Source of the DNA: Ravibacter arvi
GTDB lineage: Bacteria > Bacteroidota > Bacteroidia > Cytophagales > Spirosomataceae
DNA length: 24,000 nt
Reading direction: 5' to 3'
Assembly (NCBI RefSeq): GCF_039540405.1
Contig: NZ_BAABEY010000001.1
Coordinates: 5,493-29,492 of the forward strand
Part shown: positions 6,776 through 23,300 of the stretch, in pieces
Numbering within the stretch: the stretch's first letter is position 1
Layout of the letters: every line of letters starts with the position of its first letter
Notes under the pieces: generated by a model
What the model saw: the letters and a program-made list of their open reading frames with translations, nothing else
The model's database searches: none
Told to the model about the DNA's origin: nothing
Program-made: the position numbers and the translations under genes

Positions 6776-6791
6776 ACTCAATACCGAATTG

Positions 6792-9700
6792 ATGCGCTGC
6801 TCCGTCGTATGGCTGATCTGGCTTTTGACCACGTTTCATGTTAACGGGCAACATACAACGGACATTGCGTCCGTTCCATCCCAAAATCATTTCTTTTTTG
6901 AGCATTTTTCCCAGGAAAGCGGGCTTTCGCAGGGTACGGTGTATGCCATCAGTAACTATGACGGTTATATGTGGTTTGGTACACAGGATGGATTGAACAG
7001 ATTTGACGGGCATGTTTTCAAGACGTTCAGGGCTGGAAGGAGCTCTGGAAACTCCTTGAATAACAACTGGATTCAGACACTTCTGGCTGATAGCCAAGGC
7101 CGTCTCTGGATTGGTACGCAGGAGGGGCTCTGCTTGTATGAGGCACGAAAAGACCGTTTTCAAAGGTTCTCAAGCGTTGTAAAGAAAAATCACCCGGTCG
7201 ATTCCGTCTCGGTGAAAAAGCTGCTAGAAGACCGAAGCGGCAATATCTGGATAATGACCGGTGGGCAAGGACTTTTTTGTCTCTATGTCTCCAGCGGTAA
7301 AGTGGTTTCGTATATGCAGGAAAGTGATAAACTCTACGATTTCTGTCTCGCCCCCGACGGAACGGTGTGGCTGTCGACCTATGACGAGGTGTACCGCTAT
7401 GATGCTAAAAATGATCTCTTCAAAACTACTGGTATCAGGAAGAAACTGAACAAGTATCTCTCCGCGAAGTCGCTAATCCAATCCATTTTCGTGGATTCAA
7501 AAGAAAATCTCTGGGTTGGAACCTATCAGGAGGGTTTGTTTAGGCTTGACAATCCTTTGGAAAGGGGCAGGGTTTCGCATTATGTCAAAGGCACAAGTAA
7601 TAAGAATATTGCCGGCAATGAAATACGCGATTTTTTGGAAGACCGTAATGGCAGGGTATGGATGGGGGTTAAGGATGCAGGGATATCAGTGTTTAATTAT
7701 TCAGACGAGACGTTCGAACACGCTACCGGAGATGAAGTGCGCAGTTTATATGAAGATCATCAGGGAATTATCTGGCTTGGTCTGAGCTACAACGGCGTTA
7801 ATAAATATGATCCGGCCAAACATGTGTTTAAATTTATTCGAAAGCGGGAAAGTCAGTATCAGAATGGTTCTGTTTATACTATTTATGGAAAAGGCGAGAA
7901 TTTGTACATCGGAACTGCCAACAGGTTGATGATTTACCCCATCGGCGCACGTCAATCTGACAATGATCGTGGTCATCGCTTGTCAGGTGTAAATTTCGAA
8001 GTCTATAATATCTCCGAAGACAACCTAGGAAACCTGTGGATTGTATCAACCGATAAAGGTTTATACCGATTCGATGATAAAAGAGGCTACGTGCCTTACT
8101 CAAACGTAAGTGGCGCAGACCGGTTGCAATATTTTCTATATGCAGTTAAGGCACTGAAGAGTATTCCCGAAGTATGGGTAGGCGGACACCGAGGGCTGGA
8201 GAGGTTTGATTTGAAAACACTTAAGTGGAGGGATTGGGATGAAATGCCTCAGATCAAAACGGCAGCGAATTATACTGTTAGAATGATCTATGAGGATTCA
8301 GAACAAAACGTGTGGTTGGGAACGTTAGGTCATGGGTTGGTTTGCTACGACCCGAAAAAAAAGAAGCTCACTGTTTTCGATAAGAAAAACGGGCTTGTAT
8401 GTGATAACATTCGAAGTGTATTACAGGATGGCACTCTCCTGTGGGTGGGGACAGATTGCGGGCTTTTTTTACTTGATATGAAGCGACTCCGGGTAATGTC
8501 ACACTATTCCGAAACGACGTCTGCTCCTTTTAACTTACCTAATGAGGTCGTCTACAGTATCTTGAAGGAACCGGAAGGTGATCTATGGCTTAGCAGCAAC
8601 AAGGGACTCGCGAAATTTTCGCCAAAGAAGGGAGTTCTTAAAACCTACGATGTTACAGACGGTTTGCAAAGTAATGAATTCAATACCAACTGCGCCTATA
8701 AACACACCGACGGAACAATGTATTTCGGAGGAGTAAACGGCATCTCCTATTTTAATCCGAAGGAGCTTAGAACCAATACGTTTGTCCCTCCTGTTAAAAT
8801 TACGGGTATCACTGTATCCGACAGCTCGTATTCACCTAACCTCGAATTCATAACGCTTCCCTACGACCGAAACTTCGTTACCTTCGAGTTTGTCGCACTC
8901 AATTTTTCCAACACAAAAAAGAATCAATACCGATACCGCATGGAAGGTGTCGATCCCAAATGGGTACAGGCAGGTAGTCGAAGGTCTGCCAACTACACGA
9001 ACCTGCAGCCGGGTAAATATATCTTCAGGGTTACAGGCAGCAATAACGACGAAGTTTGGAATAAAAAGGGGATTTCTGTGCGACTTACAATCCTGCCGCC
9101 GTGGTGGGCGACCTGGTGGTTTAAATCTGTATTGATATTGATGCTGGTCAGTGGTGTTTACGGATTGTTTAAATACCGGCTTGCTCAACAAATACAACAA
9201 CGTGAAGCCGAGATACGAGGCTCGCTAATGGCCCAGGAAGCCGAACGACAACGGTTTTCACGTGAGCTTCACGACGGTGTCGGAGCCAATCTTTCGCTTT
9301 TAAAAATGTACCTATCTTCGTTCGGCGACGCCGATATTCCCTTGGCTGAACTGAAAGAACGTTCAGAAAAGCTGTTGGCGGGCTCAGTAGATGAAATCCG
9401 CCGACTGATTCATGACATGCACCCCAGAAACCTTGGATCGTTGGGGTTGGTTAAAGCAACCAATGAAATGGTACAGCTTGTAAATCTTGGCAATCAACGA
9501 CAGGTCATTTTCAGAGTAGAAAATGTTCCTGATCATTTGCCTGAGGTCGTAGAGATTAATCTTTTCCGAATCATCCAGGAGCTCCTACAAAATGCAATAA
9601 AGCACTCCGAAGCACAAACGGTATGGTTGGATTTGCAATTTACTAACCAAAAACTAAGCCTTTCTTACAAGGACAACGGAAAAGGTTTTGATACCTCGTC

Positions 9701-9827
9701 ACCTACACAGGGAAATGGATTGTTGAATATACGGAACCGGGCGACGCTATTGAAAAGTGAGCTCCACGTAAGTTCTGAAGTCGATAAAGGCACTTTCCTC
9801 CAGATATCTTTACCGTTATCTTTATAG
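6792..9827 (+). CDS. Sensor histidine kinase with periplasmic two-component-regulator propeller repeats and a Y_Y_Y domain, one TM, HisKA_3 and HATPase_c
   Basis: The ATG at 6792 lies 17 nt after the regulator stop and gives MRCSVVWLIWLLTTFHVNGQ, which is signal/TM-like. W.GT..GL propeller repeats recur. The Y_Y_Y motif is NQYRYRMEGVDPKWVQAGSRRSANYTNLQPGKYIFRV, the TM is WWATWWFKSVLILMLVSGVYGLF and the H-box is ERQRFSRELHDGVGANLS. C-terminal ATPase motifs are present (QELLQNAIKHS, DNGKGF, GNGLLNIRNR). Confidence 0.9.
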   Translation: MRCSVVWLIWLLTTFHVNGQHTTDIASVPSQNHFFFEHFSQESGLSQGTVYAISNYDGYMWFGTQDGLNRFDGHVFKTFRAGRSSGNSLNNNWIQTLLADSQGRLWIGTQEGLCLYEARKDRFQRFSSVVKKNHPVDSVSVKKLLEDRSGNIWIMTGGQGLFCLYVSSGKVVSYMQESDKLYDFCLAPDGTVWLSTYDEVYRYDAKNDLFKTTGIRKKLNKYLSAKSLIQSIFVDSKENLWVGTYQEGLFRLDNPLERGRVSHYVKGTSNKNIAGNEIRDFLEDRNGRVWMGVKDAGISVFNYSDETFEHATGDEVRSLYEDHQGIIWLGLSYNGVNKYDPAKHVFKFIRKRESQYQNGSVYTIYGKGENLYIGTANRLMIYPIGARQSDNDRGHRLSGVNFEVYNISEDNLGNLWIVSTDKGLYRFDDKRGYVPYSNVSGADRLQYFLYAVKALKSIPEVWVGGHRGLERFDLKTLKWRDWDEMPQIKTAANYTVRMIYEDSEQNVWLGTLGHGLVCYDPKKKKLTVFDKKNGLVCDNIRSVLQDGTLLWVGTDCGLFLLDMKRLRVMSHYSETTSAPFNLPNEVVYSILKEPEGDLWLSSNKGLAKFSPKKGVLKTYDVTDGLQSNEFNTNCAYKHTDGTMYFGGVNGISYFNPKELRTNTFVPPVKITGITVSDSSYSPNLEFITLPYDRNFVTFEFVALNFSNTKKNQYRYRMEGVDPKWVQAGSRRSANYTNLQPGKYIFRVTGSNNDEVWNKKGISVRLTILPPWWATWWFKSVLILMLVSGVYGLFKYRLAQQIQQREAEIRGSLMAQEAERQRFSRELHDGVGANLSLLKMYLSSFGDADIPLAELKERSEKLLAGSVDEIRRLIHDMHPRNLGSLGLVKATNEMVQLVNLGNQRQVIFRVENVPDHLPEVVEINLFRIIQELLQNAIKHSEAQTVWLDLQFTNQKLSLSYKDNGKGFDTSSPTQGNGLLNIRNRATLLKSELHVSSEVDKGTFLQISLPLSL

Positions 9828-10620
9828 TTACGGAAATACGCTCTAAACTGGACAGCTATTAAAAATTGTAACTGGATCAGTTGTGATTTATCAAATACTC
9901 CACACTCACATATATTTTGTTTCATACTGATCCACCAAAAGCAGCGCTTCATATTCATGCAGTGAAAAGCTTGTGGTCCGGATGATCCAACCCCCGTCGT
10001 AAGGCGCAGGGTTAAGCAAAGCAGATTGATAAATCAGGGCCTGATTTGTCTTAAACCCCTATAAAGAGGACAGATTATTCAAAAAGTTCAGCTAGTTCCA
10101 TCTCGTCATCCCGGGCAGCTGTGAGGCAAAGATAGGCCGGTGGGCTGTCGTTGTCAAGGCTGTACGAAGCGGACCCCTGGCACGTATCTTGGCGGTCCGG
10201 CATATTTGTCTGTCAGCAGAAAACCATGGGTATGGCCACGAGCATCCTCAATAAAGACCCTCGCGAGGGGCCTAGCGCCAATATTTGCTAAGAAATGAAC
10301 TGATGCAGAGGAATGGCAAAAAGGGGTTCCAGAATGCATGGCGAAATGAATGCTCCCGGGGTTACCGATGAGTTTTTCTAAATTAACAGTGGCTTATCAA
10401 AAAGCGCGTACCGGGGTATACAATAGCATCAGTTCATTATTCAGGCGCTTTCGTTTCAACGACTGCTCGATTATCTATCGGATTGGTTAATTTCAGTTGA
10501 CTGCGCCATTCTGTCAAAAAAAGATAAAATGGAATCAAATGTTCGATAGAGATTTCTTTCTCTCTACTCATGGTGTTGTAAATGAGTGAGTTATAAATAA
10601 ACTACACTTTCTTACACACA

Positions 10621-10660
10621 AAAGAGCCCTGAACAAACAGTTCGGGGCTCTTTTGTTTTA
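10621..10660. terminator. Rho-independent-type hairpin with flanking A and T tracts (bidirectional)
   Basis: AAAGAGCCCTGAAC-AAACA-GTTCGGGGCTCTTT is followed by TGTTTT. The stem is about 13 bp with one T/G position. The A-run upstream lets it work on either strand. Confidence 0.6.
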
Positions 10661-10831
10661 CTTCTGAACATACCAAGCATTCCCCAAACTTGGAGAAGGG
10701 TAGAGGTCAAACTTTCGATAAACCTACCCTTGTCCAATTTTGGACAGGCATACTTAACTCTGTTAACTGCTCACCGAATTGCTCACCAAAAATTTGGGCT
10801 TTTAGGAACAATTTGATGAACGGCGAACAAT

Positions 10832-10867
10832 AAAAAAGCCTGTAAATCAACGATTTACAGGCTTTTG
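10832..10867. terminator. Strong bidirectional rho-independent-type terminator
   Basis: A perfect 11-bp stem GCCTGTAAATC (10838-10848) / GATTTACAGGC (10853-10863) encloses a 4-nt loop AACG. It is preceded by AAAAAA and followed by TTTT. Confidence 0.7.
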
Positions 10868-10909
10868 ATGCTTTTTGATTTGATTCTCAGCGGGCTGGGC
10901 GGGAGTGTG

Positions 10910-10954
10910 ATCGAACCTATGGTGCCGTTGCTAGTGTTTCTGGATGAGTTGGAA
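10910..10954 (+). repeat. Left copy of a 45-bp direct repeat (partner at 17122-17166)
   Basis: ATCGAACCTATGGTGCCGTTGCTAGTGTTTCTGGATGAGTTGGAA versus ATCGAACCCCTGGTGCCTTTGTTGGTGTTTCTGGATGAGTTGGGA gives 39/45 identical in the same orientation. Looser gapped similarity (GATTC...GGGCTG) extends ~30 bp upstream. Confidence 0.8.
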
Positions 10955-11237
10955 TTGGGGTAATATTTGTGGTGGTGTGTCAGGCAAACTCATTTCGAAT
11001 GATATAGGCGGAATAGCTAATGTTAACCTCTGTTTTTGCTTTTTGTAGTCGTTTTGGGGAAACAAGTTTTAGCGTTTTTGACAGCCTTATACCAGGAGAG
11101 TCTGAGAGCTGGGTTTGCCTCTGCATCCCGGAATAGGATGGTCCGTCGGCCGGATCTTGACTCAGAGATGAGCACGAAGGCGAACCACAATGCTAACAGT
11201 TCATAGTTACATGTACCTGAGACTCTATGATATCACA

Positions 11238-12026
11238 CTACATCCACACCCTCTCTAGCGTCTGCCTAAATACTTCATTAAGCTTTTCCGTGTCAGGCTG
11301 ATTTTGTGGTCCTAACCCCCTGACGTACTCCGTGTAGAATTGGATCTTTTGTTCAAGAAAACTGTTCAGTACCTGAATTTTCGGTTCCTCATCCAGTTCC
11401 TCCCCTGACACTTTTCTGTTAAGCAGGTTCCGGATTTCATTCTCAACACCCGTATCTATCACCTGACTGTCGAGGAGCTTTTGAAACTCCATAGGAGCCA
11501 TGGAGTTGGTTTTCCTGATCCAATCGCAGGCAAGTATCGGACGCAATACGTAGAAGTATTTCTTCACGCGTACCTTCTCCCCCTGCAAATACGTCTTGTA
11601 ATTGCCTTCGGCCATATGCAGGTAATGATACAAACAGGATTTCGGGTTAAAATACATCTCCGTCAACTCCCGAAGCCTTTCAGCAAAGAAACCACGTTGC
11701 CAATAGACCATCGGACTTCTCAACCACTCCAGCATAGCAGGATTTGATTTTCGAAAAAGACGCAAGGCCTTCTTCAGTTCCCACCCGGCCAGATCGATAT
11801 CGTTGGGCAGTATTTCCTCCTGGCTATCCTTTTTGTCGTCGATGTCCAAATACCATTCAGGCTGATGAACATACATGTATCGCACATCCCAATCGCTGTC
11901 AACGGATGCGAAACCCCAAGCCCGGCTGCCGCTTTCGACAGCATAGAGGATTTTGATAGCATGTTGCTGTTCGAGGCGTAGAAGCTCCCTTTTTATTTCT
12001 TCTGTCATCACTTGCGGTATTGTCAT
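11238..12026 (-). CDS. RlaP-type (Pol-beta fold, PF10127-like) nucleotidyltransferase associated with RNA ligase operons
   Basis: The nucleotidyltransferase core reads ILYAVESGSRAWGFASVDSDWDVRYMYV (GS...D.D). It is followed by LKKALRLFRKSNPAMLEWLRSPMVY, typical of this family. The ORF opens at GTG 12095. ATG candidates are at 12026 and 12008, so the start is uncertain by about 20-90 nt. Confidence 0.8.
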   Translation of the reverse strand: MTIPQVMTEEIKRELLRLEQQHAIKILYAVESGSRAWGFASVDSDWDVRYMYVHQPEWYLDIDDKKDSQEEILPNDIDLAGWELKKALRLFRKSNPAMLEWLRSPMVYWQRGFFAERLRELTEMYFNPKSCLYHYLHMAEGNYKTYLQGEKVRVKKYFYVLRPILACDWIRKTNSMAPMEFQKLLDSQVIDTGVENEIRNLLNRKVSGEELDEEPKIQVLNSFLEQKIQFYTEYVRGLGPQNQPDTEKLNEVFRQTLERVWM

Positions 12027-12133
12027 ATGATCTCTGAAAACCGGCTTTTTACTTCGAAATGGTAATCTCCGGTGATCCTTAAAATGCAGAATCACTGGAG
12101 GTTAACCGGCCATTCGATAAACTACTAAAAACA

Positions 12134-12230
12134 GAAAGAGCGACAAGCCAGCTGTACATTTTCAGGATTCGAACCTGGGCTGTTTTCACAGCTTCTACCA
12201 GCGAAGTATTACATCTGTACAGCATCTTTC
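12134..12230 (-). ncRNA. Y-RNA-like module A (tRNA-like: D-like arm, GAAA-capped hairpin, T-arm; closed by terminal helices)
   Basis: Minus strand: GAAAGA-U-GCUGUACA...CUUC-GCUGGUA-GAAG, CUGU-GAAA-ACAG, CAGG-UUCGAAU-CCUG...UGUACAGC...GUCGC-UCUUUC, then a U5 run. The terminal helix is GAAAGA/UCUUUC and the inner 8-bp helix is GCUGUACA/UGUACAGC. It lies downstream of rsr in an ORF-free gap. Ends are approximate. Confidence 0.65.
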
Positions 12231-12238
12231 ATTTTGTT

Positions 12239-12371
12239 AAGAAGGGTAAAAAAGCAATGCATGGAATATACACCTTACGGCGCTCTGCTCTACCCACTGA
12301 GCTACCCCGCCAGGGCGGGAGCCAGACTCGAACTGGCGACACGAAGTAACACACATTTACGACACCTTCTT
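12239..12371 (-). ncRNA. yrlA: YrlA-type Y RNA module B: circularly permuted tRNA mimic (T-arm, loop-closed acceptor stem, D-arm)
   Basis: On the minus strand the T-arm is GCCAG-UUCGAGU-CUGGC (plus 12321-12337). The acceptor-like hairpin is UCCCGC-CCUG-GCGGGG (12305-12320). After UA comes the D-arm GCUC-AGUGGGUA-GAGC (12287-12302). The flanking 7-bp terminal helix is AAGAAGG (12365-12371) / CCUUCUU (12239-12245). There is no anticodon arm and no free CCA end. It sits next to rsr, as bacterial Y RNAs typically do. Confidence 0.7.
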
Positions 12372-12389
12372 ATTTCTTTATAATAATGG

Positions 12390-12514
12390 TAAGGAGCGAC
12401 AGGCAAAACGAGACGGGGGACCGCCGTTGAGGACTCGAACCTCCATCATATGTTGCCATACAATGCCCTCCCCCTCAAATGCTAGCGAAGTAACCCGTTT
12501 TTACGGCATCCTTA
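12390..12514 (-). ncRNA. Y-RNA-like module C (paralog of module A: D-like arm, GCAA-capped 9-bp hairpin, T-arm)
   Basis: Minus strand: UAAGGA-U-GCCGU...CUUC-GCUAGCAUUU-GAGG, then CAUUGUAUG-GCAA-CAUAUGAUG (plus 12444-12465), then GAGG-UUCGAGU-CCUC (12429-12443), then ACGGC...GUCGC-UCCUUA. It shares the 5' motif UGCYGUA...UACUUCGCU and the 3' motif UGUCGCUCYUU with module A. Ends are approximate. Confidence 0.65.
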
Positions 12515-12561
12515 TTTTATGGATAGAAATCAATCAGTCTGGCCTCAATTCCCCAACTCCT

Positions 12562-14157
12562 TCACAAGAAGCCGGGGGAACACGAAGCAATGTCGATACG
12601 CTCGATTTCATCTAGCGCTTTTCCGCCGTTTTCCAGGGCATCAAGCACGCCGAAGATCTTATCGCTCCATCCGGCCAGCAGGTAAACCTCATTCTGGATG
12701 ATCTGTACGGGTGGGCGTCCATACCCCATCAGGTCAAAAAGGTATAACCTTGCATCGGGCGCTACAGTACGTTTGTATTCCAGCCATAACGCGTAGATGT
12801 TTTTTGTACCGGTCATGCTGTTCCACAACTGACAGTCGGTAAATAGCATCACTTTGTCCATTACTACTTTCTGTTTCAACAGATCCTCAATCACGAGAAA
12901 ACCATTGGTGGAGTAGCCTACCTCTCCTTCCCGCCTATAAAACTCCTGTACATTTGCCAGGACGTTGTTCTTAGGCACCGGGATCAGCTTCCAGGTATCT
13001 CCAAACATCCCGACCCTTACGTTCCTGCACCGGCTTTGAAGCAGCATAGCCAACATCAGTCCTACATCATAGAGCAGGACCTTCGACTTTGGTGAGACAG
13101 GCTTCTGCATGGAGCCCGATATATCACACGCAAGCAATATCCTGGTATTTTCATCAAACCCGGCTATCACGGATGCACTTTGAACAACAGCTTTTTCAAG
13201 CGCTTCCAGTAGCTCGCCTACATATCCATCACTCCCGGTGAAAAAACTTTTCAGCTTTTCAGAAAGGCCGCTCTTTCCAGTAGGCAAAGACAGCAACTCG
13301 CGGTAAGCTGCCAGGTACCGAAAAGGGAATTGTTTTGCATTAGCCACTTTCTCCGGCGCAGAAAGCTGATCCGCTACCTTGCGGATGTGCGGGTGAGATA
13401 CGCCCGCCTCCAGCATATTCCGCAGGTTACGAAGCGTAGCCATGTGACCCAATTTCCCACTATCGATCAGTTCTTCCCATTTAGCTTTAAATGCAGCTTC
13501 CTTTTCAGCGTCACACTCATAGGAAACCTGGCCCAGGGCTGACAGCTCTGTCTCCCAGGTATAAGGTGTTTCAAGCCTGTCGTCTGCAATTTTGTTAAAA
13601 AGATGTTGCTGCGCTTCATCTTTCGGCTTCGGGTGCACCATGAAAAGCGCATCCCGCAACCGGATTTCGGCCGGACGATTGTATTTGGCAAACTGGTATT
13701 CGTCAAACCTGTTAAAAGCCGTAGACAATCCTTTCTGCAATTGTTTGGACAGGCCACCCAGCTTTTTAAAGCCTTTGCGCTTGTTTAAGACCTGGTAACA
13801 GGCCAACAGCTCCGTGATCTCGTCAGCACGTGCAATGACCTTTGCAGTAGCTTTGGACACCAGGTCGTCACCGGAATGTACCCGGGCCAGTTCGGTCAGC
13901 AGCACCAGCGGCGCTGACCGCATATACATTTTATAACGGGTGTAAACTGCCAGCTTTGCGACAAACAACGGATCATTCTCCGCTATCAGCTTCCTGACGC
14001 GCAGCAGGCGATCATTATCCTTTTCGTAAAACGAATCACTGACAGACCACGTCACTACGGCGGTATATAGCTCCATTGCAGGGTCAAGCCTGAAGGTCTT
14101 CTCTCCTTCATAGTTTTTAATCTGCATGCTCCCGTTGTTGACTGTATTAAACCTCAT
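12562..14157 (-). CDS. rsr: Ro60 ortholog Rsr (TROVE domain plus C-terminal vWA domain with MIDAS motif)
   Basis: The protein is about 530 aa. Its N-terminal two-thirds are helical and TROVE-like (FRLDPAMELYTAVVTW...FYEKDNDRLLRVRKLIAE...FVAKLAVYTR...MRSAPLVLL). The C-terminal vWA domain carries DISGSM (DxSxS). It lies next to rtcB and the tRNA-like RNAs. The ATG at 14157 is preferred over the TTG at 14199, which falls inside the upstream palindrome. Confidence 0.85.
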   Translation of the reverse strand: MRFNTVNNGSMQIKNYEGEKTFRLDPAMELYTAVVTWSVSDSFYEKDNDRLLRVRKLIAENDPLFVAKLAVYTRYKMYMRSAPLVLLTELARVHSGDDLVSKATAKVIARADEITELLACYQVLNKRKGFKKLGGLSKQLQKGLSTAFNRFDEYQFAKYNRPAEIRLRDALFMVHPKPKDEAQQHLFNKIADDRLETPYTWETELSALGQVSYECDAEKEAAFKAKWEELIDSGKLGHMATLRNLRNMLEAGVSHPHIRKVADQLSAPEKVANAKQFPFRYLAAYRELLSLPTGKSGLSEKLKSFFTGSDGYVGELLEALEKAVVQSASVIAGFDENTRILLACDISGSMQKPVSPKSKVLLYDVGLMLAMLLQSRCRNVRVGMFGDTWKLIPVPKNNVLANVQEFYRREGEVGYSTNGFLVIEDLLKQKVVMDKVMLFTDCQLWNSMTGTKNIYALWLEYKRTVAPDARLYLFDLMGYGRPPVQIIQNEVYLLAGWSDKIFGVLDALENGGKALDEIERIDIASCSPGFL

Positions 14158-14195
14158 GACATTCTTTGTTTTAATTGAATGTTCAAATTTCAAAC

Positions 14196-14224
14196 TCAAC
14201 TGCGCGGTCTTTCTGCGCAGTTGA
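14196..14224. promoter_or_regulatory. Palindromic operator-like site upstream of rsr (copy 1)
   Basis: TCAACTGCGC-GGTCTTTCT-GCGCAGTTGA has perfect 10-bp arms. It lies between the rtcB stop (14233) and the rsr ATG (14157). It is nearly identical to the site at 15727-15751. Confidence 0.7.
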
Positions 14225-14232
14225 AACTTTTT

Positions 14233-15687
14233 TTAATCCTCCGGCTTTTCTTTAGGATCGGCCATCCTGACAATCCGCGGCTGGAAGCTGGCGAGGACTT
14301 CTACCAAGTCGGATTGCGCGGCCATCACCGCATAGATATCCTTGTAAACCATCGGCGCTTCATCCAGCCCGGATCCGATCACCGTAATGCGGTTTTCCTT
14401 CAGGTTCCTGTCTACCACTGCCTTGTCGATGGTCTTAAGGGCCGCGCTCCGGCTCATCAACCGTCCAGCGCCATGAGAGGCCGAATGCAGCGACTCAGCA
14501 TTCCCTTTTCCACGAACTACAAACCCAGGGGTGCTCATGGAGCCGGGAATAATCCCGAGGGTATCCGCTCCGGCCGGGGTTGCCCCCTTGCGGTGTACCA
14601 TCACATCCGTACCGTCGGCCAGTTTTTCCTTCCAGGCGAAGTTGTGGTGGTTCTCGATGCGTCTCACCGGCGATACGCCGAGTCCTTTGGCGATCTTGTT
14701 GTGGATCTCATGATGGTTAGCCGAAGCGTAGTCGCCTGCCAGGTTCATCGCGATCCAGTACTCTTGTCCCTCGTCGCTATGAAGGTCCAGCCAGGCCAGG
14801 TGACGTGCTTCTTTTGGAAGCAGGGTCTTCTGCATCGCAATGGCCGAATAGGTATTGGCAATATTCCCGCCGAATCCCCTTGAACCGGAATGGGACAGTA
14901 AGGCCAGGTATCTTCCGGCGGGGATACCGTCCAGCGCATTTTCCGTAATCGTCAGCTCACCCCATTCCACGAAATGATTACCGGTTCCGGAGGTACCCAG
15001 CTGCGCATAAGCTTTATCCTTCAGCGCTTTTACGGTCTTGATTTCATTCCACTCCGGGCGGTCGAACAGCGTCGTATCCAGGTGTACGTTCGTTTTAGCC
15101 CCCATACCGAAGTGCGTATGCTCCATCAGCAGTTTTTCCAGTCTTGGCTTTTCGTGCTCCACCGATGCTGCCGGCAGATCGAAGATGCTCAGGCACATAC
15201 GACAGGCGATGTCCACCCCAACCGCATAGGGGATAATGGTATCCGGCTCTGTCGCCAGTACTCCACCTATCGGCAGACCGTAGCCCTGGTGCGCATCAGG
15301 CATCAATGCCCCTGCCACTGCAATGGGCAACTGGATAGCCGTACGCATCTGCGCCAGGGCGCCCACTTCTATGTGTTCCGGGCCGAAGACTGGGAAAGTC
15401 ATGATTTCCTCCTTTAACTGCTGCACGCTCCGGGCCTGTTTGATGAACTGACCTTTCGCGCGCAACTCAACGATCCGTTCGGCAAGATTCTTGAATTTAC
15501 CGTTCCGTTTCAGCGCATAAGGTTCCGGGTGCTCGATCAAGGCTTCAAGGTTGGCCATAATAGTGGCTTTGTCCATCACCTCGTGCTTCAGCAGGCCGTT
15601 GGCCACGCGGCTGAATGCTACCAGCAAGTCCAGGTCGCTGATTCCCAAAGCGCCTAATTCTCCATTGCTGATTTTTTCTCTTTCCAT
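14233..15687 (-). CDS. rtcB: RNA 3'-phosphate/5'-OH ligase RtcB (with an N-terminal extension of roughly 50-85 aa)
   Basis: Canonical RtcB motifs are present: MPDAHQGYGLPIGG, GVDIACRM, GTSGTGNHFVEWG, HSGSRGFG, NHHNFAWKE, HRKGATPA, IPGSMSTPGFVVRGKG and SASHGAGR (the GMP-histidine context). The ATG at 15687 (MEREKISNG...) is preferred over the TTG at 15720. Confidence 0.95.
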   Translation of the reverse strand: MEREKISNGELGALGISDLDLLVAFSRVANGLLKHEVMDKATIMANLEALIEHPEPYALKRNGKFKNLAERIVELRAKGQFIKQARSVQQLKEEIMTFPVFGPEHIEVGALAQMRTAIQLPIAVAGALMPDAHQGYGLPIGGVLATEPDTIIPYAVGVDIACRMCLSIFDLPAASVEHEKPRLEKLLMEHTHFGMGAKTNVHLDTTLFDRPEWNEIKTVKALKDKAYAQLGTSGTGNHFVEWGELTITENALDGIPAGRYLALLSHSGSRGFGGNIANTYSAIAMQKTLLPKEARHLAWLDLHSDEGQEYWIAMNLAGDYASANHHEIHNKIAKGLGVSPVRRIENHHNFAWKEKLADGTDVMVHRKGATPAGADTLGIIPGSMSTPGFVVRGKGNAESLHSASHGAGRLMSRSAALKTIDKAVVDRNLKENRITVIGSGLDEAPMVYKDIYAVMAAQSDLVEVLASFQPRIVRMADPKEKPED

Positions 15688-15726
15688 GAAAGGTATTTTT
15701 ATTTTGATGCTACAAACCAAACCTCT

Positions 15727-15751
15727 AACTGCGCAGTCTTTTTGCGCAGTT
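15727..15751. promoter_or_regulatory. Palindromic operator-like site in the rtcB / WYL-regulator divergent intergenic region (copy 2)
   Basis: AACTGCGCA-GTCTTTT-TGCGCAGTT has perfect 9-bp arms. It lies about 40 nt upstream of the rtcB ATG and 35 nt upstream of the divergent regulator ATG (15786). Confidence 0.7.
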
Positions 15752-15785
15752 GAATTTATTTCCTTACTTTTCTAAAAAAGTTGCG

Positions 15786-16808
15786 ATGCCTGTCAACCGA
15801 AACGCCCTCATACGTTACCGTACCATTGACCAATGCCTTCAGAACCGGTTCCGGAAATGGACCCTCGACGATCTCATTGAAGCCTGCTCGGCCGCCTTGT
15901 ATGAGTTTGAAGGGATCGACAAAGGTGTGAGCAGGCGGACCGTCCAGGCCGATATAGAAATGATGCGAAGCGACAAGCTGGGCTATGAAGCGCCTATTGT
16001 TGTAGTCGACCGGAAATACTACAGTTATGCGGACAAAAACTACAGCATCGCCCATATCCCGTTGAGCCACCAGGATCTGAAGGTGCTGACCGAAGTATCG
16101 GGCCTGCTGCAGCAATTCAAGGGCTTCAGCCATTCTACCGACCTGACCGAGATGGTCAGCAGGCTGGAGGATAAGATACACGCCCGTAAAACACATTCAG
16201 CCCCGGTCATCGATTTTGAAAAGAACGATCACCTTCGCGGCCTGGAGTATATTGAGGGCATCCGGAAAGCGATCGTTGCCCGGACAACGCTTTATCTTAC
16301 TTACCAATCGTTCAAAGCCCGGCAGGCCAGCTCATTCCACTTCAGTCCATACCTGTTGAAAGAGTACCGGAACCGGTGGTTTATGCTTGGCTTGTCACAC
16401 CAGCGGCATGCACCTTTACTCACACTGGCTTTGGACCGGATACAGGATTTTGGGGAAGACACCGGAGAGCCCCACCGGGAAAATACCCAAATCGATCTAT
16501 CCACCTATTATTCGGATGTGATCGGCGTGACCAAAACTCCGGGGCAGCGCGACTGTGAAGTAATATTCAGGATGGATCACAAAGACGCTCCTTACCTGAT
16601 CACCAAGCCGCTTCATCCTACGCAGAGGGTTTTGAGCGAAGACGCAGGAGGGAAAATTTTCAGTATTAAGGTTGTCTTGAACTTCGAGCTGGAAAGGGAG
16701 ATACTTGGTTTTGGTCCAAGAATACACGTTTTAGGTCCAAGGATTCTTCGTAAAAGGATCAGGGAACAGTTGAGAGAGGCTTTGGAGAAATATGAGTCTC
16801 CAGAATGA
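15786..16808 (+). CDS. HTH-WYL domain transcriptional regulator
   Basis: The ATG at 15786 gives MPVNRNALIRYRTIDQCLQNRFRKWTLDDLIEACS...GVSRRTVQADIEMMR, the N-terminal wHTH typical of Bacteroidota WYL regulators. The central WYL-type strand reads FHFSPYLLKEYRNRWFMLG. A C-terminal extension follows. The gene is divergent from rtcB. Confidence 0.8.
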   Translation: MPVNRNALIRYRTIDQCLQNRFRKWTLDDLIEACSAALYEFEGIDKGVSRRTVQADIEMMRSDKLGYEAPIVVVDRKYYSYADKNYSIAHIPLSHQDLKVLTEVSGLLQQFKGFSHSTDLTEMVSRLEDKIHARKTHSAPVIDFEKNDHLRGLEYIEGIRKAIVARTTLYLTYQSFKARQASSFHFSPYLLKEYRNRWFMLGLSHQRHAPLLTLALDRIQDFGEDTGEPHRENTQIDLSTYYSDVIGVTKTPGQRDCEVIFRMDHKDAPYLITKPLHPTQRVLSEDAGGKIFSIKVVLNFELEREILGFGPRIHVLGPRILRKRIREQLREALEKYESPE

Positions 16809-17121
16809 GATCAACTGTCGTATTACCTTGGAAAATAGATGCTGTTAAATAACGCGGTAACGGAAGGGAGTTCTCTGTGATCCCGCTGGGGTCGCAATTT
16901 GTATTTTAAAGCACCTGTAAGTCAGGATTTTATATCAATTCTTTGTAATGGGTAATCGAAAAGGTAGCCGAATTATTTGACTCGTTTAGACACGGGTTGG
17001 TTGTTCAATGATTCCGTGGTACTAAGATAGTGATTTGGCAAATCAATAAGATGGCAGTAAGTAATTTATTTTCACTTCGTAAGAAACTTGCGATTCAGCC
17101 CCGCTCACCGGACTGGGCTGA

Positions 17122-17166
17122 ATCGAACCCCTGGTGCCTTTGTTGGTGTTTCTGGATGAGTTGGGA
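17122..17166 (+). repeat. Right copy of the 45-bp direct repeat (partner at 10910-10954)
   Basis: See the left copy. It is immediately preceded by a perfect 10-bp hairpin GATTCAGCCC-N13-GGGCTGAATC (17092-17124) that the left copy lacks. Confidence 0.8.
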
Positions 17167-17320
17167 GCAGATTGACTTGATTGGAATCATTGGTCATTTT
17201 TTGTCACATAACCATAAGTATCCGAAATAAAACCTGAAAGCGCATTAAAAAAGAGACTCTCACTCGAAAGTATTAAATTGTAGTTGAGAAACATAACCAA
17301 AGATTCTCCGAATAGTAAAA

Positions 17321-17410
17321 ATGTCACTTTTCAGTCAAATGGTGAGCCAGATTCCGCGAGATAAGTTTGAACTCTTAGTGTCTAAGTACGCTTTATTGGG
17401 CTCCTTGTGA
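17321..17410 (+). pseudogene. N-terminal fragment of an IS4-family (DUF4372-type) transposase
   Basis: MSLFSQMVSQIPRDKFELLVSKYALLGSL* matches the F(S/A)Q(L/M)..S.(I/L)PR..F..LV.KY pattern at the N-terminus of Bacteroidota IS4-like transposases. A stop truncates it after 29 codons and no intact DDE domain follows. Confidence 0.45.
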
Positions 17411-18091
17411 ACCCAGTCTGTCGTATAAAACTCCACATCTGTTCGCACTTTTCAATATTCTAAACTATTTTTCGGGCAAGTTAGGAGCGGAACGCAAGAG
17501 ACAGAATATGCTGTTGAAAGGGTGCTTCCCAACTGGTATGAGTTCATAGACGAACCAGCCCTGGCCGATTGAGGCTATCCGTGACATATTGACTGCTTCG
17601 GCCACCATAACAGAAATTCAAGGAAAGTCCTTGAGAAAGTGAAAACAATAGCGTAGAATTGTTATTCTTTAATCACCGTATTCTCAGTGAACTATGGGGA
17701 CCGGTAAACATTAGAGCGGAATGGGGGTAAACTTTTGTCGGATAAATAAGTAGCCAAGCGAGAATAGAAAATGCAAACAATAGTAAAGAAAATAAAAGGA
17801 CTGAGGGTTTGTGAGCCGTACACACCAGGTGACATATGCACTGTGTTAGGCTGTAGCAAAGTGGCAGATTCTCTTGTAGTCTTCACGATGAGTATATGGT
17901 TTCAGGGGAGAAGGAATCGTTCAATAAACAAGATTTTATCTGTCGGTTTATTTGTAGGGAGTATCGGGTATTCAACGACCATAATGTGGTTGGACAGCTT
18001 AGGCCGCGTAGCATTATTTCTTGTCCATATATATATCAAAATGGAGCATTGATTTTTTATATTTTTTTCTGCCGGTTGAAGCGATTTAATC

Positions 18092-18532
18092 ATGGATTCA
18101 ATATTAAAAAGACTAAGTAAACTATCTGAAGAGCAACATAAAGTTCTAGAAAGTCTACGTTTCAAAGATCAAGATCTATCTACCAAGTTAGGTGCTTTAC
18201 TCGCTTTTTCTGGATTGATGATTGCTACCTCCATAGTTCAGCTTTCAACATCTGAGGGGTCGATAATCCATGTGGATATTAGTTCTGTATGGTTGGTTTG
18301 GTCAAATGTGTTTTCTTTGTTGTTATTGTTTGGTTCTGGTTTTTTTTGTATTTTTGGATTAACGTCAACAGGTAACTATTCTTCTGATGGAGTGGCTGCT
18401 CTTGAAGAGTATAAAACATATTTGAAAAATAAAATGGCGGCATTGAGGTGGTCTGTAATACTTGTTCTTATCGGTAGCAGCCTAGTATTATTGACATTTT
18501 TTAAAGTGATACTAGACCAAGTTTTCCATTAA
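18092..18532 (+). CDS. Small integral membrane protein (3 predicted TM helices), function unknown
   Basis: ATG start. An amphipathic N-terminal helix is followed by hydrophobic segments LGALLAFSGLMIATSIVQL, VWLVWSNVFSLLLLFGSGFFCIFGL and WSVILVLIGSSLVLLTFFKVIL. It lies in an AT-rich island 165 nt upstream of the next same-strand ORF. Confidence 0.6.
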   Translation: MDSILKRLSKLSEEQHKVLESLRFKDQDLSTKLGALLAFSGLMIATSIVQLSTSEGSIIHVDISSVWLVWSNVFSLLLLFGSGFFCIFGLTSTGNYSSDGVAALEEYKTYLKNKMAALRWSVILVLIGSSLVLLTFFKVILDQVFH

Positions 18533-18697
18533 TTCGTCACAACTCCCAATATCCATAATCCCTCATCGAAGCCATTGGATTGAAATTATAAACCCCAACG
18601 CCAACGTTTCTTTTCAGCCGAATCTGACTGCTGCGTTGTCTTTTGCTGAACCACGGTTAATGATTATTGAAGTTGTTCGTGTTTGCTATTTTAAGTT

Positions 18698-19828
18698 ATG
18701 TCTATTTGTAAATTTTGCTTGACTAGAGAAGCTGACAAGGGTAATACTCACTTGTTAGCTCACTCAATGATTAGAAGATCTGTTAACGAGCCAGGAAAAA
18801 AAGGGAGAGATAGAGAGCTTTATTTTGATTTATCGTTTGATGGCTCTACAGTTAGTAATACTCTAAAGATAGGTGATAGTGTGTTGGATATAAAGAGAGA
18901 GGAGATGGAAAGCTTATATCATTCAAAGTTAATAGGGAAAGGAAGAGAGAGAGATTTTGCAGTGGATAATGAGTTTTGCTCGGAATGTGAAAAATCGTTT
19001 GAGTATATTGAAGATTTGTATTCTTCGGAAGTGGTTGGGGAGGTGGAGAAAAAAAGTAAAAATCACTTTCAGGGTGTATTGGAGATCCTCATTACGGATA
19101 GATATCGTATCAATTTATTTTATGCGTTCCATTTTTTGAACATATGGAGATACTCTATTTTTAACTACGACTCAGCTCTATTTTCGAAGAAATTGATTCC
19201 GATTAAACAATATTTGATGGAAATTCTGACTAGTGATAAAGATAAATTAGATCAGAATTTGAAAAAATCGATTGAGTTAACAGCTTTTATTGCCGTGTTT
19301 ATTCTAAAAGTTGGCGGAGAGAGGGATGGTGAAGATATTATTAATGAAAAATTTACTAACTCATTATTTTTTCACAGTTTAGATGAACCTCGATTTTTTG
19401 TGTTTGGGACGACAATAATATTATTGCATAGCAGACAATCTTACTTTAAGACTAGGACGAAGCCTTACTACGGTTTATCAAGTATTTGTAATCTTTTTGA
19501 CGCATCATCCAATTGTGATGTAGTGAAAATTGAAGTTTTGGGTGATGATCATACGTCGACGTTTATGACTAATTGTGCTATTGAAATAAGCGGTATTATA
19601 AAAGAAGAGTTGATCAGAAAGGTGAAATTGATGTATAGTGCTGCCGTATCGATCGGGGTTGGAATCAAGTATACTAAAATAAAGGGAGAGTTTATTGTCA
19701 ATAAGTTTATCGAGAATAATCCGAGTTATTTATGGGATAATTTACCTGCCTTATATGTCTCGCGAGAGTTAGCTTTATTGATAGAATCAAATGAAAGTAT
19801 TCTATCCGACAGTGATAGTAGACGGTAA
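18698..19828 (+). CDS. Hypothetical 376-aa protein with two CxxC pairs, function unknown
   Basis: This is the only long ORF in this AT-rich stretch and it starts at ATG 18698. It has an N-terminal CKFC (residues 5-8) followed by THLLAHSMI, and a second CSEC about 85 residues later. I recognise no other family motifs. Confidence 0.6.
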   Translation: MSICKFCLTREADKGNTHLLAHSMIRRSVNEPGKKGRDRELYFDLSFDGSTVSNTLKIGDSVLDIKREEMESLYHSKLIGKGRERDFAVDNEFCSECEKSFEYIEDLYSSEVVGEVEKKSKNHFQGVLEILITDRYRINLFYAFHFLNIWRYSIFNYDSALFSKKLIPIKQYLMEILTSDKDKLDQNLKKSIELTAFIAVFILKVGGERDGEDIINEKFTNSLFFHSLDEPRFFVFGTTIILLHSRQSYFKTRTKPYYGLSSICNLFDASSNCDVVKIEVLGDDHTSTFMTNCAIEISGIIKEELIRKVKLMYSAAVSIGVGIKYTKIKGEFIVNKFIENNPSYLWDNLPALYVSRELALLIESNESILSDSDSRR

Positions 19829-20268
19829 ACCTTGGAATTGAATTTGGAATCAAGCAATAGACCAAGTTCGTGATCCTGATCATTATTAACCTCTACTCCG
19901 GGAGAAAGAGTATCCTGTCTAATTTTTAGGATTTCAGCTTTACTGACTAGAGAAGAATTTTTACCCACTATTTCATTCAAAACTTTTACTGATTGTTTAT
20001 CTGAGAAAATACAAGCGGCATTTTTGATCTTTAGGCACACGCATAATTTTACCTAATATCTATACCGGTATTTTTTAGTCCTTCCGCAGATTCACTGAAG
20101 AATGAGGCTGTTGATTTCAGAAATTGTTTATTCCGACGTAAGTGGTTCTTCTCAAACATTGGTAATATCACCAAAAGTGACGAAGAACCAGTTTACTCCG
20201 GAATATCCATTTTGAGTTTAGAACTGAGTCTTTGAGGCTCGAATGAGTCGTTATTGATAACTGTGCCA

Positions 20269-20301
20269 CCCGGCTAGGCTATGTCTGCCCGGGGATTTTT
20301 T
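20269..20301 (+). terminator. Possible plus-strand terminator
   Basis: CCCGGC-N12-GCCCGGG is an imperfect stem with one bulge, followed by GATTTTTTAT. It lies in the convergent intergenic region. Confidence 0.3.
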
Positions 20302-20352
20302 ATGTGAACTGGCCGTCGGCAAAGGTTTCTCTGTCCAGGCTGGTTGCAACCT

Positions 20353-23300
20353 TCAACTATAGACGTGTATCTGCTGAAAATCCGCATAAGCCTGATCTTC
20401 ACCCGGATTACGCCGGTCCCACATTTCAAACTGTCCCAAAGAGAGTTTGCGCTCCCCCCACACTGCCCATACCAAAGACATTCCCAATTGATCGAGCAGG
20501 CTGTCCAGTAGATCCTTTCTTAAGAAGAACAGGCGTTCATTGTTTTTTGACGAGTTCTTTGCGTAAAAGTTCTGAAAAGTAACCTGCTCGCTCGAACTAT
20601 TGCGAAGATCCCTGCCCTGCGGTATGGTTGTTAGATCCAGCATTTGGATCAGCTTTTTGTTCAATGTTGAGCCGCCAGTGAATTCTTCAAAAAGTGTTTT
20701 CCCAGGCGTACCAAGGTCGCAGACTGGTTGGATCACCGTGATATCGCGGGTCTGTTGCTGGACGCGCTTCACCATGACCGTTTCCTTCCTGATCTCCAGC
20801 TTTCCGAAATCCTCATCGCTTAGCTCAAGTCTCTCATCGTCTTCATCGCTCGAAAAATCAATAACAGATAAACGAAGCTTATCAAAGAATGAAAGCTCCA
20901 CAGCTATTTCGTTCAAGTAGAACCTGTCCACTTCCTCTGGCTCCTCGACAGTGATTTCAGCCACAACAAAGCGAAGCTCATTCGGTTGCTGATCCGCGAA
21001 ATGGCTACTCCATGGCACTTCTCCGGCGAACGCGCAGCTTTCTTCATATTTTTCTGGCAGCCACCTCCCGCCCAGGCGCTGCTTCTCCAGCAGTGAAACC
21101 AGTTCAGCCTGCTGGTCTTTTGCAACAAAAAACGCCCTGAAAAATCCGAACATACTCCGCCCCCTCCTTTCATCCTTCTGCCCAAGGTGCCCATCCAGAA
21201 GCACCCAAGGACCTGATAGGCCGCCCAATGTCTCCTGCTGAAGGTAAATACCTAGATCTGGTATCTCGCCACTTTTGACCCATTCCTGCGGCGGAATATC
21301 AGGACTGCCCAGCGTGTCCATATCGATAATCCGATCGGCTCTGAGCGGGTAAGGGAAACTGGGGTCGATGTCCGCATCCGATTCACGCCGGTCCAGATAG
21401 ATATCTTCATCTTCTTCATTAGATTGTTCAATTAATCCCTTTTGCTCGAAATAGGCTATCCAGGAATACTTCTTGCCATAACGATCCGTTTTGTCGATAT
21501 CGCTGTCCTCATGCCGGTAAGAGTTTCTTACGTTTTCGATCGAGCGCTCCACTGTTTCAAACGCCTTGAAAGACCAGCCAAGGTCAAATATCCTCCATAG
21601 GATCTTTGACCTTACATCCTTGTATCCCTCGTGGCCGTAATCATAATTTCGCCTGCCGGGCACAAGCCGTCCGATCACATAGTTCTCAAAATCCATCCTA
21701 AATGGAGACTGCCCTCGTTCGGTTTCCTTATGGTATTTCCTTATACTTTTATCACCTTGGGAAGGCTTGGGTGTTTTATAGATTTCGTTGAGCTCTTCAG
21801 GCGAAAATAGTGCGGCGTTCCGGGATTCCGCGAGCTCGATAATCCCTCTTGCATAATCCAGTATAAGTATGTGAGTCGAAAGGCTCTCAGCGTTCAGACT
21901 GAACATCAGCTCATAAATTTGCCTTGCAAAATTAGGCAGTACATCATTGCAAAATTCAGAATTATCTGGATCACAGGCGCGGGCCATGGCTGCCCCGTAG
22001 CTTGCGGCGAGCATACGTTCTGGTATGTAAGGGTCGTTTACGGAAAGGGAACTGATCGCCAGATCGAACAGTTGTTTGGCCGCGCCCCTTCCGTACCAGT
22101 ACAACGCAAGCGTCGCTTTGTGTCGCATTCTATGGCTCGTGCTGGTCAACATCCACATGATCCACCTCGCCATTAGATTGTCGGTTGGAATTCGTTTTTG
22201 AACTTCAGCGGACCAAGTGGAAATAATACCGTCAAGATCGGATTCGAAGCGAGGCTGATTTCTACGTAGCCACTCGCTCCAAATAAGATCCCGTTTGCCA
22301 ACCTCGAGCGACGACAGCACCTGGTCTACAAAAAGTACATTTAGGGGGTGTCTTTCAGTGACACGAATCGGATATAGCCGTCCCAAATATTTGTTTAAGT
22401 TCGGCTCTGATTTTTTGATGCTCTCTGCGACTGCTACAGTAGTTTGGGTATCCAGATATTTTGGCTCCAACAAGATTGCTAATTCCAACGCCTCGTCGCG
22501 TAGGTTATTATCTACCACCTCCCAGAACTGAATATGATGATATTGAGGCAGCAACGCCGTCAAAAACCAAATGATATCATCCCTCAAGGGATGTTGGGTT
22601 TCATAATTGTTATCCAGTGCTTTGGCGGTCGTTTCGTTTTTGATCCAAGATTCAATAGTATCCCTTCCGTTTTTGGAAATTATATATTTGGCGATCAGGT
22701 ATCCGCCTAGAAGATCATATGTTGGAGTGATCTGATACTGATAAGGGAGATTCCCGGGCATTCTCAATAAAAGCCCTTCCTGTTCCATAAAATTAACTGC
22801 GCTATTGTCCCAGTTGCTGCGGTCCTTGATGTCTTCGCGGAACTGCTCCTGGGGTACTTCCCGGGAGTGGGTTTCCCATAAAGCCTGGCCGAACTTGTCC
22901 AAATAGGCAGTGATATCCGCTTGGCGGTATCGGCAATGATAGGGTGATAATTCTTCTATTCTAGCGGCGGCTAGCTCCACGTACTTTTCAAAAAGTGAAG
23001 CGAGCGAGCGCGGAACGGCCTCCATCCCGACGGGCTTTTCACGCGTGGGATTGCACACCTCGCAGAATATCCTCAAGGTCAGCGGATGGCGAAGGAAGTA
23101 ATTATATACCAGATTCGGCTGGGCCTCTATCTTAAAATGTTCAAAATACCTATCCATGGCGTCACCAATATCGTCCCCAAAGTCTGGAATTTCGAATGTG
23201 AGCGTATAGTCAGGCAGGCATTGTTCAACGAAGGGGTGACGCTTTGCTTGTTCAGAGTCGTATTCATAGTCACTCTCTCGATCCCCTCTCCTTGATCCTG

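Follow-up and report, generated by a model that had tools for sequence, protein, structure and literature searches.

A stretch of 24,000 nt from Ravibacter arvi (GCF_039540405.1, contig NZ_BAABEY010000001.1, positions 5,493-29,492 of the forward strand; hereafter the window, whose own numbering is used below) carries at positions 11232-16797 what is probably a self-contained RNA-damage response cassette under control of a DriD/PafBC-like WYL activator acting from the -33 position of its promoters. The minus strand of the 5.6-kb cassette encodes, in this order, the RNA ligase gene rtcB, the Ro60 orthologue gene rsr, three Y-RNA-like units and the nucleotidyltransferase gene rlaP, and the gene of a predicted helix-turn-helix (HTH)-WYL-WCX transcription factor is transcribed divergently from rtcB. 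A preliminary description of the locus had already given this order and had attributed the four open reading frames (ORFs) to the RtcB, TROVE, RlaP and WYL families; a Pfam profile search assigns all four as proposed. What ties the regulator to RNA repair is a palindromic element that precedes repair genes, here and in related loci across Bacteroidota, at a fixed distance to a promoter-like element and in constant orientation.

Predicted operator and promoter module of the RNA-repair genes

A palindrome had been mentioned in the preliminary description; two copies of its 19-bp sequence, TGCGCA-N7-TGCGCA, occur in the window against an expectation of 0.05. Each of them opens a promoter-like module directed towards a repair gene on the minus strand. 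In P_rsr (14184..14219), the predicted operator TGCGCGGTCTTTCTGCGCA (14201-14219) is followed by 13 nt and a TTTG element (14187-14184), and the module ends 27 nt before the rsr ATG. P_rtcB (15713..15748) is composed in the same way of the operator TGCGCAGTCTTTTTGCGCA (15730-15748), 13 nt and TTTG (15716-15713), and the start codons of both genes are found ~25 nt past the TTTG. This second site would also act as operator of the divergent WYL gene, which has its ATG 38 nt further right. As rsr is equipped with its own operator and promoter copy, the locus is probably not a single operon.

A search with the WYL protein, limited to one genome per species, yielded 80 orthologous loci (44-95% identity; designated by L numbers), all of them from Bacteroidota except for one metagenome-assembled genome (MAG) labelled Burkholderiales. 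According to ORF clustering and Pfam, 61 of these loci encode an RNA-repair ORF within 8 kb of the WYL gene, with RtcB found in 50, Band-7/SPFH proteins in 19, Rsr in 15, RlaP in 10, a second RlaP-like protein in 8, and Pnkp, Hen1 and PrfH in 7 loci each. Additional RtcB sequences were recovered by tblastn in L014, L025, L050 and L079, and several of the remaining loci are truncated contigs. No DNA-repair gene was found in the regulon.

Nearly every locus shows the consensus (C)TGCGCA-gtctttt-TGCGCA(G) upstream of the WYL gene, in most cases at a distance of ~40-55 bp, and operator variants of the type T[G/A]CGCA ... TGCG[C/T]A keep the symmetry. Beside the WYL orthologues, the module precedes rtcB, rsr with its Y RNAs, rlaP, hen1-pnkp, Band-7 genes accompanied by tRNA-like RNAs, and tRNA genes. 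The operator between rtcB and rsr is conserved wherever both genes stand in tandem (L001, L002, L006, L007, L023 and L073), and extra copies are located before repair genes not adjacent to the regulator gene, namely before rsr in 7 loci, before a distant rtcB in L022 and before rtcB and rlaP2 in L031. When 38 sites were oriented by their repair genes and aligned, the module aAAataNttTtNaC-TGCGCAAAAAGACTGCGCAg-N12-cTTTGta emerged, often continued by ...TCAA and preceded by an A/T-rich block. When all 88 sites were tallied, TTTG was found 13-14 nt past the palindrome in 65 of them, and the asymmetric spacer was present in one constant orientation in 81.

The same association was recovered when metagenome contigs were scanned for exact matches to the palindrome, with no protein used as a guide. 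This motif-first scan returned 121 sites, 112 of which were usable, having at least 400 nt of sequence downstream. The first gene downstream is a repair gene in 85 of the usable sites (76%), encoding RtcB at 31, Rsr at 15, Band-7 proteins at 15, RlaP or RlaP2 at 12, Hen1 at 9 and Pnkp at 3 of them. Some of the other 27 sites have no TTTG and resemble chance matches; others precede Y-like RNAs, tRNA-like RNAs or tRNA genes. A divergent WYL gene is encoded upstream at 66 of the 121 sites, and in viral contigs the palindrome was not found.

Gene fusions point the same way. In one homologue from the databases, the regulator is joined to the RNA 2'-phosphotransferase Tpt1/KptA, and ~20 of the 80 orthologues (513-613 aa) are long enough for a C-terminal PhyH-like 2-oxoglutarate-Fe(II) dioxygenase domain, the presence of which was confirmed in L053. 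The long and fused regulators include that of L053 (8001-9713) and P0116. With neighbourhoods, module conservation, motif-first scan and fusions all in agreement, it is difficult to escape the conclusion that this WYL clade and RNA repair are directly linked by regulation. The claim of the preliminary description that the WYL protein regulates the RNA-repair locus is strongly supported, both by the module beside 44-95% identical orthologues and by the share of usable motif-first sites leading into repair genes.

Promoters of Bacteroidota carry a TTTG element at -33 and TAnnTTTG at -7. We accordingly read the TTTG of the module as the core of the -7 box, which would place the palindrome at approximately -25 to -45, in place of the -33 TTTG that is missing from these promoters. 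A sigma-70 consensus scan gave matches at chance level, and that consensus does not apply to Bacteroidota. Matches to the sigma-54-like pattern TGGCAC-N5-TTGC are likewise at chance level in the window, with none inside the two relevant intergenic regions, in line with the earlier statement that a convincing sigma-54 promoter is missing.

Several loci carry further RNAs or genes behind the operator. In L086 (374-3712), 16 tRNA genes flank rsr behind the operator; L109 and L138 contain Met and Lys tRNAs between operator and rsr; and a single tRNA-Arg(ACG) or tRNA-Tyr(GUA) gene is situated directly past the operator in L033, L035 and L037 (~7180-7290) and in L043 and L045 (~7770-7854). tRNA-Arg and tRNA-Tyr are classic targets of colicin D and colicin E5. 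These genes may encode damage-induced replacement tRNAs. A family of ~750 aa, annotated solely by a weak match to a prokaryotic RING finger, is encoded past the operator in L051, L054, L097, L137, L160 and L165. In the two loci examined, L097 and L160, a 119-125-nt tRNA-like RNA with a long insert (Rfam tRNA, 46-48 bits) precedes the gene, and protein and RNA may form another RNA-scaffold module of the regulon. L159 harbours near-identical copies of an operator with a Y-RNA-like unit (113-400 and 3732-4020) flanking transposase-like ORFs, with no rsr nearby. Finally, L084, L086, L109 and L138 share a conserved GC-rich stretch that covers the first ~500 nt past the operator up to the first tRNA or rsr; it contains no long ORF and no Rfam match, and may represent a novel structured RNA.

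Repair proteins and Y-RNA-like units of the cassette

Judged by conservation in relatives, the likely start codons are the ATGs at 12026 (rlaP), 14157 (rsr), 15687 (rtcB) and 15786 (WYL gene). The 3'-phosphate/5'-OH RNA ligase gene rtcB (14233..15687, minus strand; ORF 14233-15720) matches Pfam PF01139 with an E-value of 1.7e-82 and 278 bits against a cut-off of 27. Alignment with Pyrococcus horikoshii RtcB (4DWR) shows GVDIAC, GNHF, SHSGSRG, HHN and SHGAGR to be conserved, and the active-site motifs are thus intact. They comprise the residues that act in PhoRtcB as metal-binding Asp, Cys and His and as the GMP-accepting His of HGAGR. The protein starts with an N-terminal extension of ~112 aa (residues 1-112; 15352-15687). 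This extension recurs in RtcBs of 484 aa from the loci of Cytophagales and Sphingobacteriales, and the RtcBs of Band-7-type loci lack it. An identity of this extension with archease or another domain was considered and rejected, as it has no Pfam match.

The Ro60 orthologue gene rsr (12562..14157, minus strand; ORF 12562-14199) encodes a TROVE ring (Pfam TROVE, E 1.4e-27, 97.5 bits) and a von Willebrand A domain, the latter passing its vWA_Ro60 cut-off marginally (28.2 versus 27.7 bits), and contains the sequence DISGS resembling a metal ion-dependent adhesion site. Its best relatives in the PDB are the TROVE proteins 9L5Y and 9KOP (E 1.8e-20, full-length alignment), which may correspond to the Thermus phage Ro60 homologue of PMC12135203. 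With 17.9 bits against a cut-off of 900, Rsr stays far under the NCBIfam Rsr equivalog NF041674, as does RtcB under the bacterial RtcB equivalog NF007153 (161 bits versus 407). We therefore regard both as divergent family members and not as close orthologues of the studied proteins.

The RlaP-family Pol-beta nucleotidyltransferase gene rlaP (11238..12026, minus strand) shares the strand of rtcB at a distance of ~2.2 kb, and its frame is open up to a GTG at 12095 (ORF 11238-12095). The protein covers the complete Pfam profile PF10127 (positions 1-249 of 249; E 1.5e-90, 303.7 bits) and carries the GS...DxD Pol-beta motif (ESGSRAWGFASVDSDWD; ESGS...DSDWD); a sequence search of the PDB returned no relative. 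An imperfect 10-bp inverted repeat, CTCCAGTGAT...ATCACCGGAG, is located at 12067-12100 on the minus strand between the third Y-RNA-like unit and the probable rlaP ATG and could form a processing or attenuation hairpin.

In the spacer between rsr and rlaP (12100-12560), ARAGORN detected no tRNA and Rfam gave no match at gathering score, and single-sequence minimum free energy folds were uninformative (z-scores from 0.6 to -1.9), so a comparative analysis was adopted. Tandem arrays of one to six units follow rsr in 14 loci. The 44 units extracted from them start with R-U-G-Y-C-G-U-A...UUACUUCG and end with GC-YUKUY-GC followed by the complement of the 5' leader. Across the 42 units entering the stem alignment, for which the 5' and 3' segments were used, 94.4% of the cells of a 17-pair closing stem are paired as compared to 39-52% in slid controls. 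Double changes amount to 187 cells versus 20-39 in the same controls, and 14 pairs show compensatory changes. For the basal 5-bp helix 1, whose 3' partner was located by complementarity, the test contains some circularity, which weakens the case to that extent; the 2-bp and 8-bp helices, however, follow at a fixed offset and covary strongly (GC/GC, GU/AC, GG/CC). A T-arm mimic with compensatory stem variants is present in 35 of the 44 units, joined by a D-arm in about a quarter, and the other 9 have plain hairpins.

By these features, the spacer of the window contains three predicted Y-RNA-like units on the minus strand, one of them of full YrlA type, beginning 48 nt past the rsr stop. Unit 1 (12390..12514) has the closing stem and a G-rich/C-rich helix enclosing a hairpin and the T-arm mimic GGAGG-UUCGAGU-CCUC; in Dyadobacter and related loci, too, the unit that directly follows rsr is of this conserved type. 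Unit 2 (12240..12370) combines the closing stem with T-arm, acceptor-like hairpin and D-arm, and unit 3 (12134..12230) consists of the closing stem, a small hairpin and the T-arm mimic CCAGG-UUCGAAU-CCUG. At relaxed thresholds, unit 2 was matched by Rfam YrlA (RF02553) with 40 bits and an E-value of 3.4e-7, not reaching the gathering score of 69, whereas nothing in Rfam matched units 1 and 3. Unit 2 resembles YrlA in its closing stem, in the internal loop formed by 5' G-Y-C-G-U-A and a 3' CUUGUYGC-type segment, and in the layout of the T-arm, acceptor hairpin and D-arm that follow. It differs in its 5' motif, which reads GYCGUA and not GNCGAA, and units 1 and 3 keep only the T-arm. The three tRNA-like RNAs of the preliminary description are hence recovered as Y-RNA-like units that all contain a T-arm, but the full module of T-arm, acceptor hairpin and D-arm is restricted to unit 2. 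Rsr, whose gene is adjacent to these Y-like RNAs, may bind them in vivo.

Proposed mode of action and possible ligands of the WYL regulator

The regulator gene (15786..16808, plus strand; ORF 15750-16808), listed as 'YafY family' in databases, encodes a protein of 340 aa that matches Pfam WYL (E 4e-11, 43.1 bits) and WCX (E 9e-12, 45.7 bits), both above cut-offs, as well as PADLOC WYL models. Its N-terminus has no Pfam HTH match and folds into helices at residues 5-61 in an AlphaFold2 (AF2) model of low confidence, calculated from a shallow alignment of 30 sequences that are all at least 70% identical (predicted local distance difference test, pLDDT, of 60). Given this pLDDT, Foldseek served to rank families. 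Its full-length matches are led by DriD and PafBC at ~1e-9, followed by BrxR and CapW at ~1e-4; a PDB sequence search gave marginal matches (DriD/PafBC, E ~0.2-0.7).

We envisage two minus-strand transcription units besides the divergent regulator gene. Unit 1 would consist of rtcB, and unit 2 of rsr, the three Y-RNA-like units, presumably processed from the transcript, and probably rlaP, each unit opening with the A/T-rich block, the 19-bp inverted repeat, 13 nt and TTTG. The HTH-WYL-WCX protein would bind the palindrome as a dimer and, once a nucleic-acid ligand arising from damage occupies its WYL domain, recruit RNA polymerase to these promoters devoid of a -33 element, as DriD and PafBC do. 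RtcB would then reseal breaks with 2',3'-cyclic-phosphate and 5'-OH ends, RlaP would restore one or two lost 3' nucleotides, and Rsr, tethered by the Y RNAs, would handle or present damaged structured RNAs by analogy to Deinococcus and Salmonella (PMC4201824). The role given to RlaP follows the Pseudomonas enzyme, which extends damaged RNA 3' ends by one or two nucleoside monophosphates and without which aminoacylation of over-trimmed tRNA is not restored (PMC12776372).

Activation is favoured, only moderately, by two observations, the promoter geometry and the fold ranking. The DriD site overlaps an absent -35 element at a fixed distance to the -10 element (PMC13004042), and the module described here has a comparable geometry; DriD and PafBC rank ahead of BrxR and CapW in Foldseek. 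Some points weigh against the model. Every step of the mechanism is a computational prediction, and the preference for DriD/PafBC is weak evidence, since the structural model is poor. Of the TAnnTTTG consensus, these sites do not keep the TA. In the window no operator precedes rlaP, so its control is deduced from position.

A first point of debate is the nature of the signal. The preliminary description assumed that the WYL domain senses RNA fragments, for which our analysis offers no support: the WYL domain binds single-stranded DNA (ssDNA) in DriD, PafBC and CapW, that is, in all characterised relatives close in fold. It is conceivable, if somewhat doubtful, that ssDNA arising from DNA damage or phage attack is the signal and that the RNA-repair regulon forms an arm of a DNA-damage or defence response. 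Apart from the ligands of the relatives, this would fit the upregulation of Deinococcus radiodurans Y RNAs after UV (PMC4201824) and the defence island to the right of the cassette with its Avs2-like and PycTM-like genes. The composition of the regulon speaks against it, as it comprises RNA-repair enzymes, Y-like and tRNA-like RNAs and tRNA genes with no DNA-repair gene among them, and so does the fusion of a homologue to the RNA-end enzyme Tpt1/KptA. WYL factors are moreover predicted to sense cyclic-ended RNA by a comparative-genomics group. Taking the ligand as a question of its own, we regard cyclic-ended RNA and ssDNA as roughly equal candidates.

The direction of control is the second point of debate. 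A less likely alternative is that the WYL protein is a CapW/BrxR-like repressor that blocks the divergent promoters and P_rsr and is released by its ligand upon a damage signal. A palindrome lying over the -33 position and shared with a divergently transcribed regulator gene is also a classic repressor layout, and weighs against activation for this reason. CapW and BrxR, which are among the fold matches, are winged HTH (wHTH)-WYL-WCX repressors (PMC11662680). WYL factors of another conflict system are furthermore treated as negative regulators in a comparative-genomics paper. On the other side, the rigid 13-nt phasing, the constant spacer orientation and the absent -33 TTTG resemble DriD-dependent promoters, and a repressor needs none of them. 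The fold similarity is also better to DriD/PafBC (1e-9) than to BrxR/CapW (1e-4), with the caveat of the low-confidence model.

That the palindromes work in the transcript, as a hairpin for termination, attenuation or processing, or are a dispersed repeat with the WYL gene as a mere neighbour, we consider highly improbable and reject: both sites do score as an 11-12-bp stem with a T-run on the plus strand, which counts against an operator, and one is positioned between the co-oriented rtcB and rsr, but conservation is confined to the TGCGCA cores and the spacer with no RNA-stem covariation in the flanks, the T-run falls on the strand opposite to the genes, the distances to the promoter-like TTTG and the start codons are fixed, and the motif-first sites co-occur with WYL orthologues, with none in viral contigs.

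Possible island character and relation to known systems

The segment 11232-16797 shares 91% nucleotide identity with a related Cytophagales MAG (L001, 3457-9012); the identity ends within a few bases of the rlaP-to-WYL block, and the flanks beyond are unrelated to those of L001. The GC content of the cassette is 0.50, as opposed to 0.36-0.44 in its surroundings. Considering also the defence-type right flank, the cassette behaves as a movable island beside a defence island, and is a discrete and possibly mobile unit. Decay was observed in relatives: L002 has lost rsr with a Y-RNA remnant left behind, and in L005 and L029 rtcB is reduced to fragments.

The right flank (16809-23979) is AT-rich (GC 0.36-0.40) and resembles a defence island. 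It encodes a 146-aa protein with a weak match to the Pycsar effector PycTM (18092-18532), a 376-aa ORF devoid of annotation (18698-19828) and, on the minus strand, a 1208-aa Avs2-like STAND NTPase (20353-23979). The left flank (47-9827) encodes two proteins that carry a C-terminal sorting domain of the type IX secretion system, one of 1137 aa with DUF5650 repeats and one of 815 aa. Next come a LuxR-type response regulator and a hybrid sensor kinase of the Y_Y_Y/propeller type, the kinase being syntenic with L005 and L017 of Dyadobacter. A region of 1.4 kb (9828-11237; GC 0.435) separates the kinase gene from rlaP, and its longest ORF is at most 61 aa. Rfam gave no match to this region, and among related loci only L020 shows homology, over 78 nt. 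It could represent the remains of a gene, a non-coding RNA or the scar of an insertion.

Among the characterised systems, the rsr-yrlBA-rtcBA/RtcR locus of Salmonella Typhimurium is alike in bringing together a Ro60 orthologue, Y RNAs of which one is a tRNA mimic, and RtcB (PMC7790460, PMC4201824), and in its divergently encoded, dedicated ligand-sensing transcription factor with a presumed response to damaged tRNA or rRNA. In contrast to the Salmonella locus with its CARF/sigma-54 activator RtcR, sigma-54 promoter and RtcA, the cassette described here probably relies on an HTH-WYL-WCX protein and a palindromic operator, places rtcB first, provides rsr with its own promoter, contains three instead of two Y units and adds RlaP; its Rsr and RtcB are far from the characterised equivalogs. 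Pfam detected no RtcA, RtcR or archease domain among the large ORFs of the window, and their absence had been correctly noted before. Pseudomonas rtcB-rlaP-rtcA also has RlaP beside an RNA ligase, but is governed by RtcR (PMC12776372).

With DriD of Caulobacter and PafBC of mycobacteria, the regulator appears to share the wHTH-linker-WYL-WCX architecture, the best fold matches, a target overlapping the absent -35 element at a fixed distance to the downstream element, and the control of several promoters by one regulator. It differs in that DriD and PafBC regulate DNA-repair genes and the regulon found here RNA-repair genes and small RNAs, in its marginal sequence similarity, and in the Bacteroidota-specific sigma factor and promoter type of its host. 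The enzyme families and the modular 'syntax' are those of the RtcB/RlaP, Band-7 with tRNA-like RNA and Pnkp-Hen1 repair systems catalogued by comparative genomics (Burroughs and Aravind 2016). What sets the present regulon apart is that, across Bacteroidota, exchangeable sets of repair genes appear to depend on a single WYL regulator and a single promoter module.

All part families, the RtcB-RlaP neighbourhoods and the Rsr-Y RNA-RtcB neighbourhoods are known already. Two later papers of one comparative-genomics group cite Burroughs and Aravind 2016 when stating that RNA repair is regulated by WYL factors sensing cyclic-ended RNA. The association of WYL and RNA repair has therefore probably been published in silico. 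The novelty claimed in the preliminary description holds for the experimental side, as literature searches on RtcB/WYL/Ro60 and RlaP/WYL gave no paper linking these experimentally, and less so for the association itself. In the literature searched we found no description of the operator, the fixed promoter geometry, the second promoter before rsr, or the service of one regulator to interchangeable modules.

The inducer of bacterial RNA repair and the role of Ro60 and Y RNAs beside RtcB are known only for the enterobacterial RtcR/sigma-54 system. The R. arvi locus represents a second, unrelated solution to their control with a precise and easily testable cis element, 19 bp at a fixed distance to the promoter core, and its modular regulon ties together enzyme sets so far studied apart, namely RtcB, RlaP, Pnkp-Hen1, Band-7 and Rsr. 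As the regulon is present in relatives that can be cultivated, among them Dyadobacter, Mucilaginibacter and Pedobacter, the question of whether the WYL domain reads RNA damage rather than ssDNA is directly testable. The tRNA genes behind the operator hint that the response includes tRNA replacement besides repair. As a tentative and more speculative extension, Bacteroidota may possess an 'RNA SOS response', in which a single DriD/PafBC-like WYL activator would sense broken RNA (2',3'-cyclic-phosphate ends, nicked tRNA) and induce, via one portable promoter module, whichever kit the genome has: RtcB, Rsr with Y RNAs, RlaP, Pnkp-Hen1, Band-7 with tRNA-like RNAs, or replacement tRNA genes and arrays. 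Such a response, if true, would parallel on the RNA side the WYL regulons that sense ssDNA upon DNA damage, and would be independent of the CARF/sigma-54 solution of Proteobacteria.

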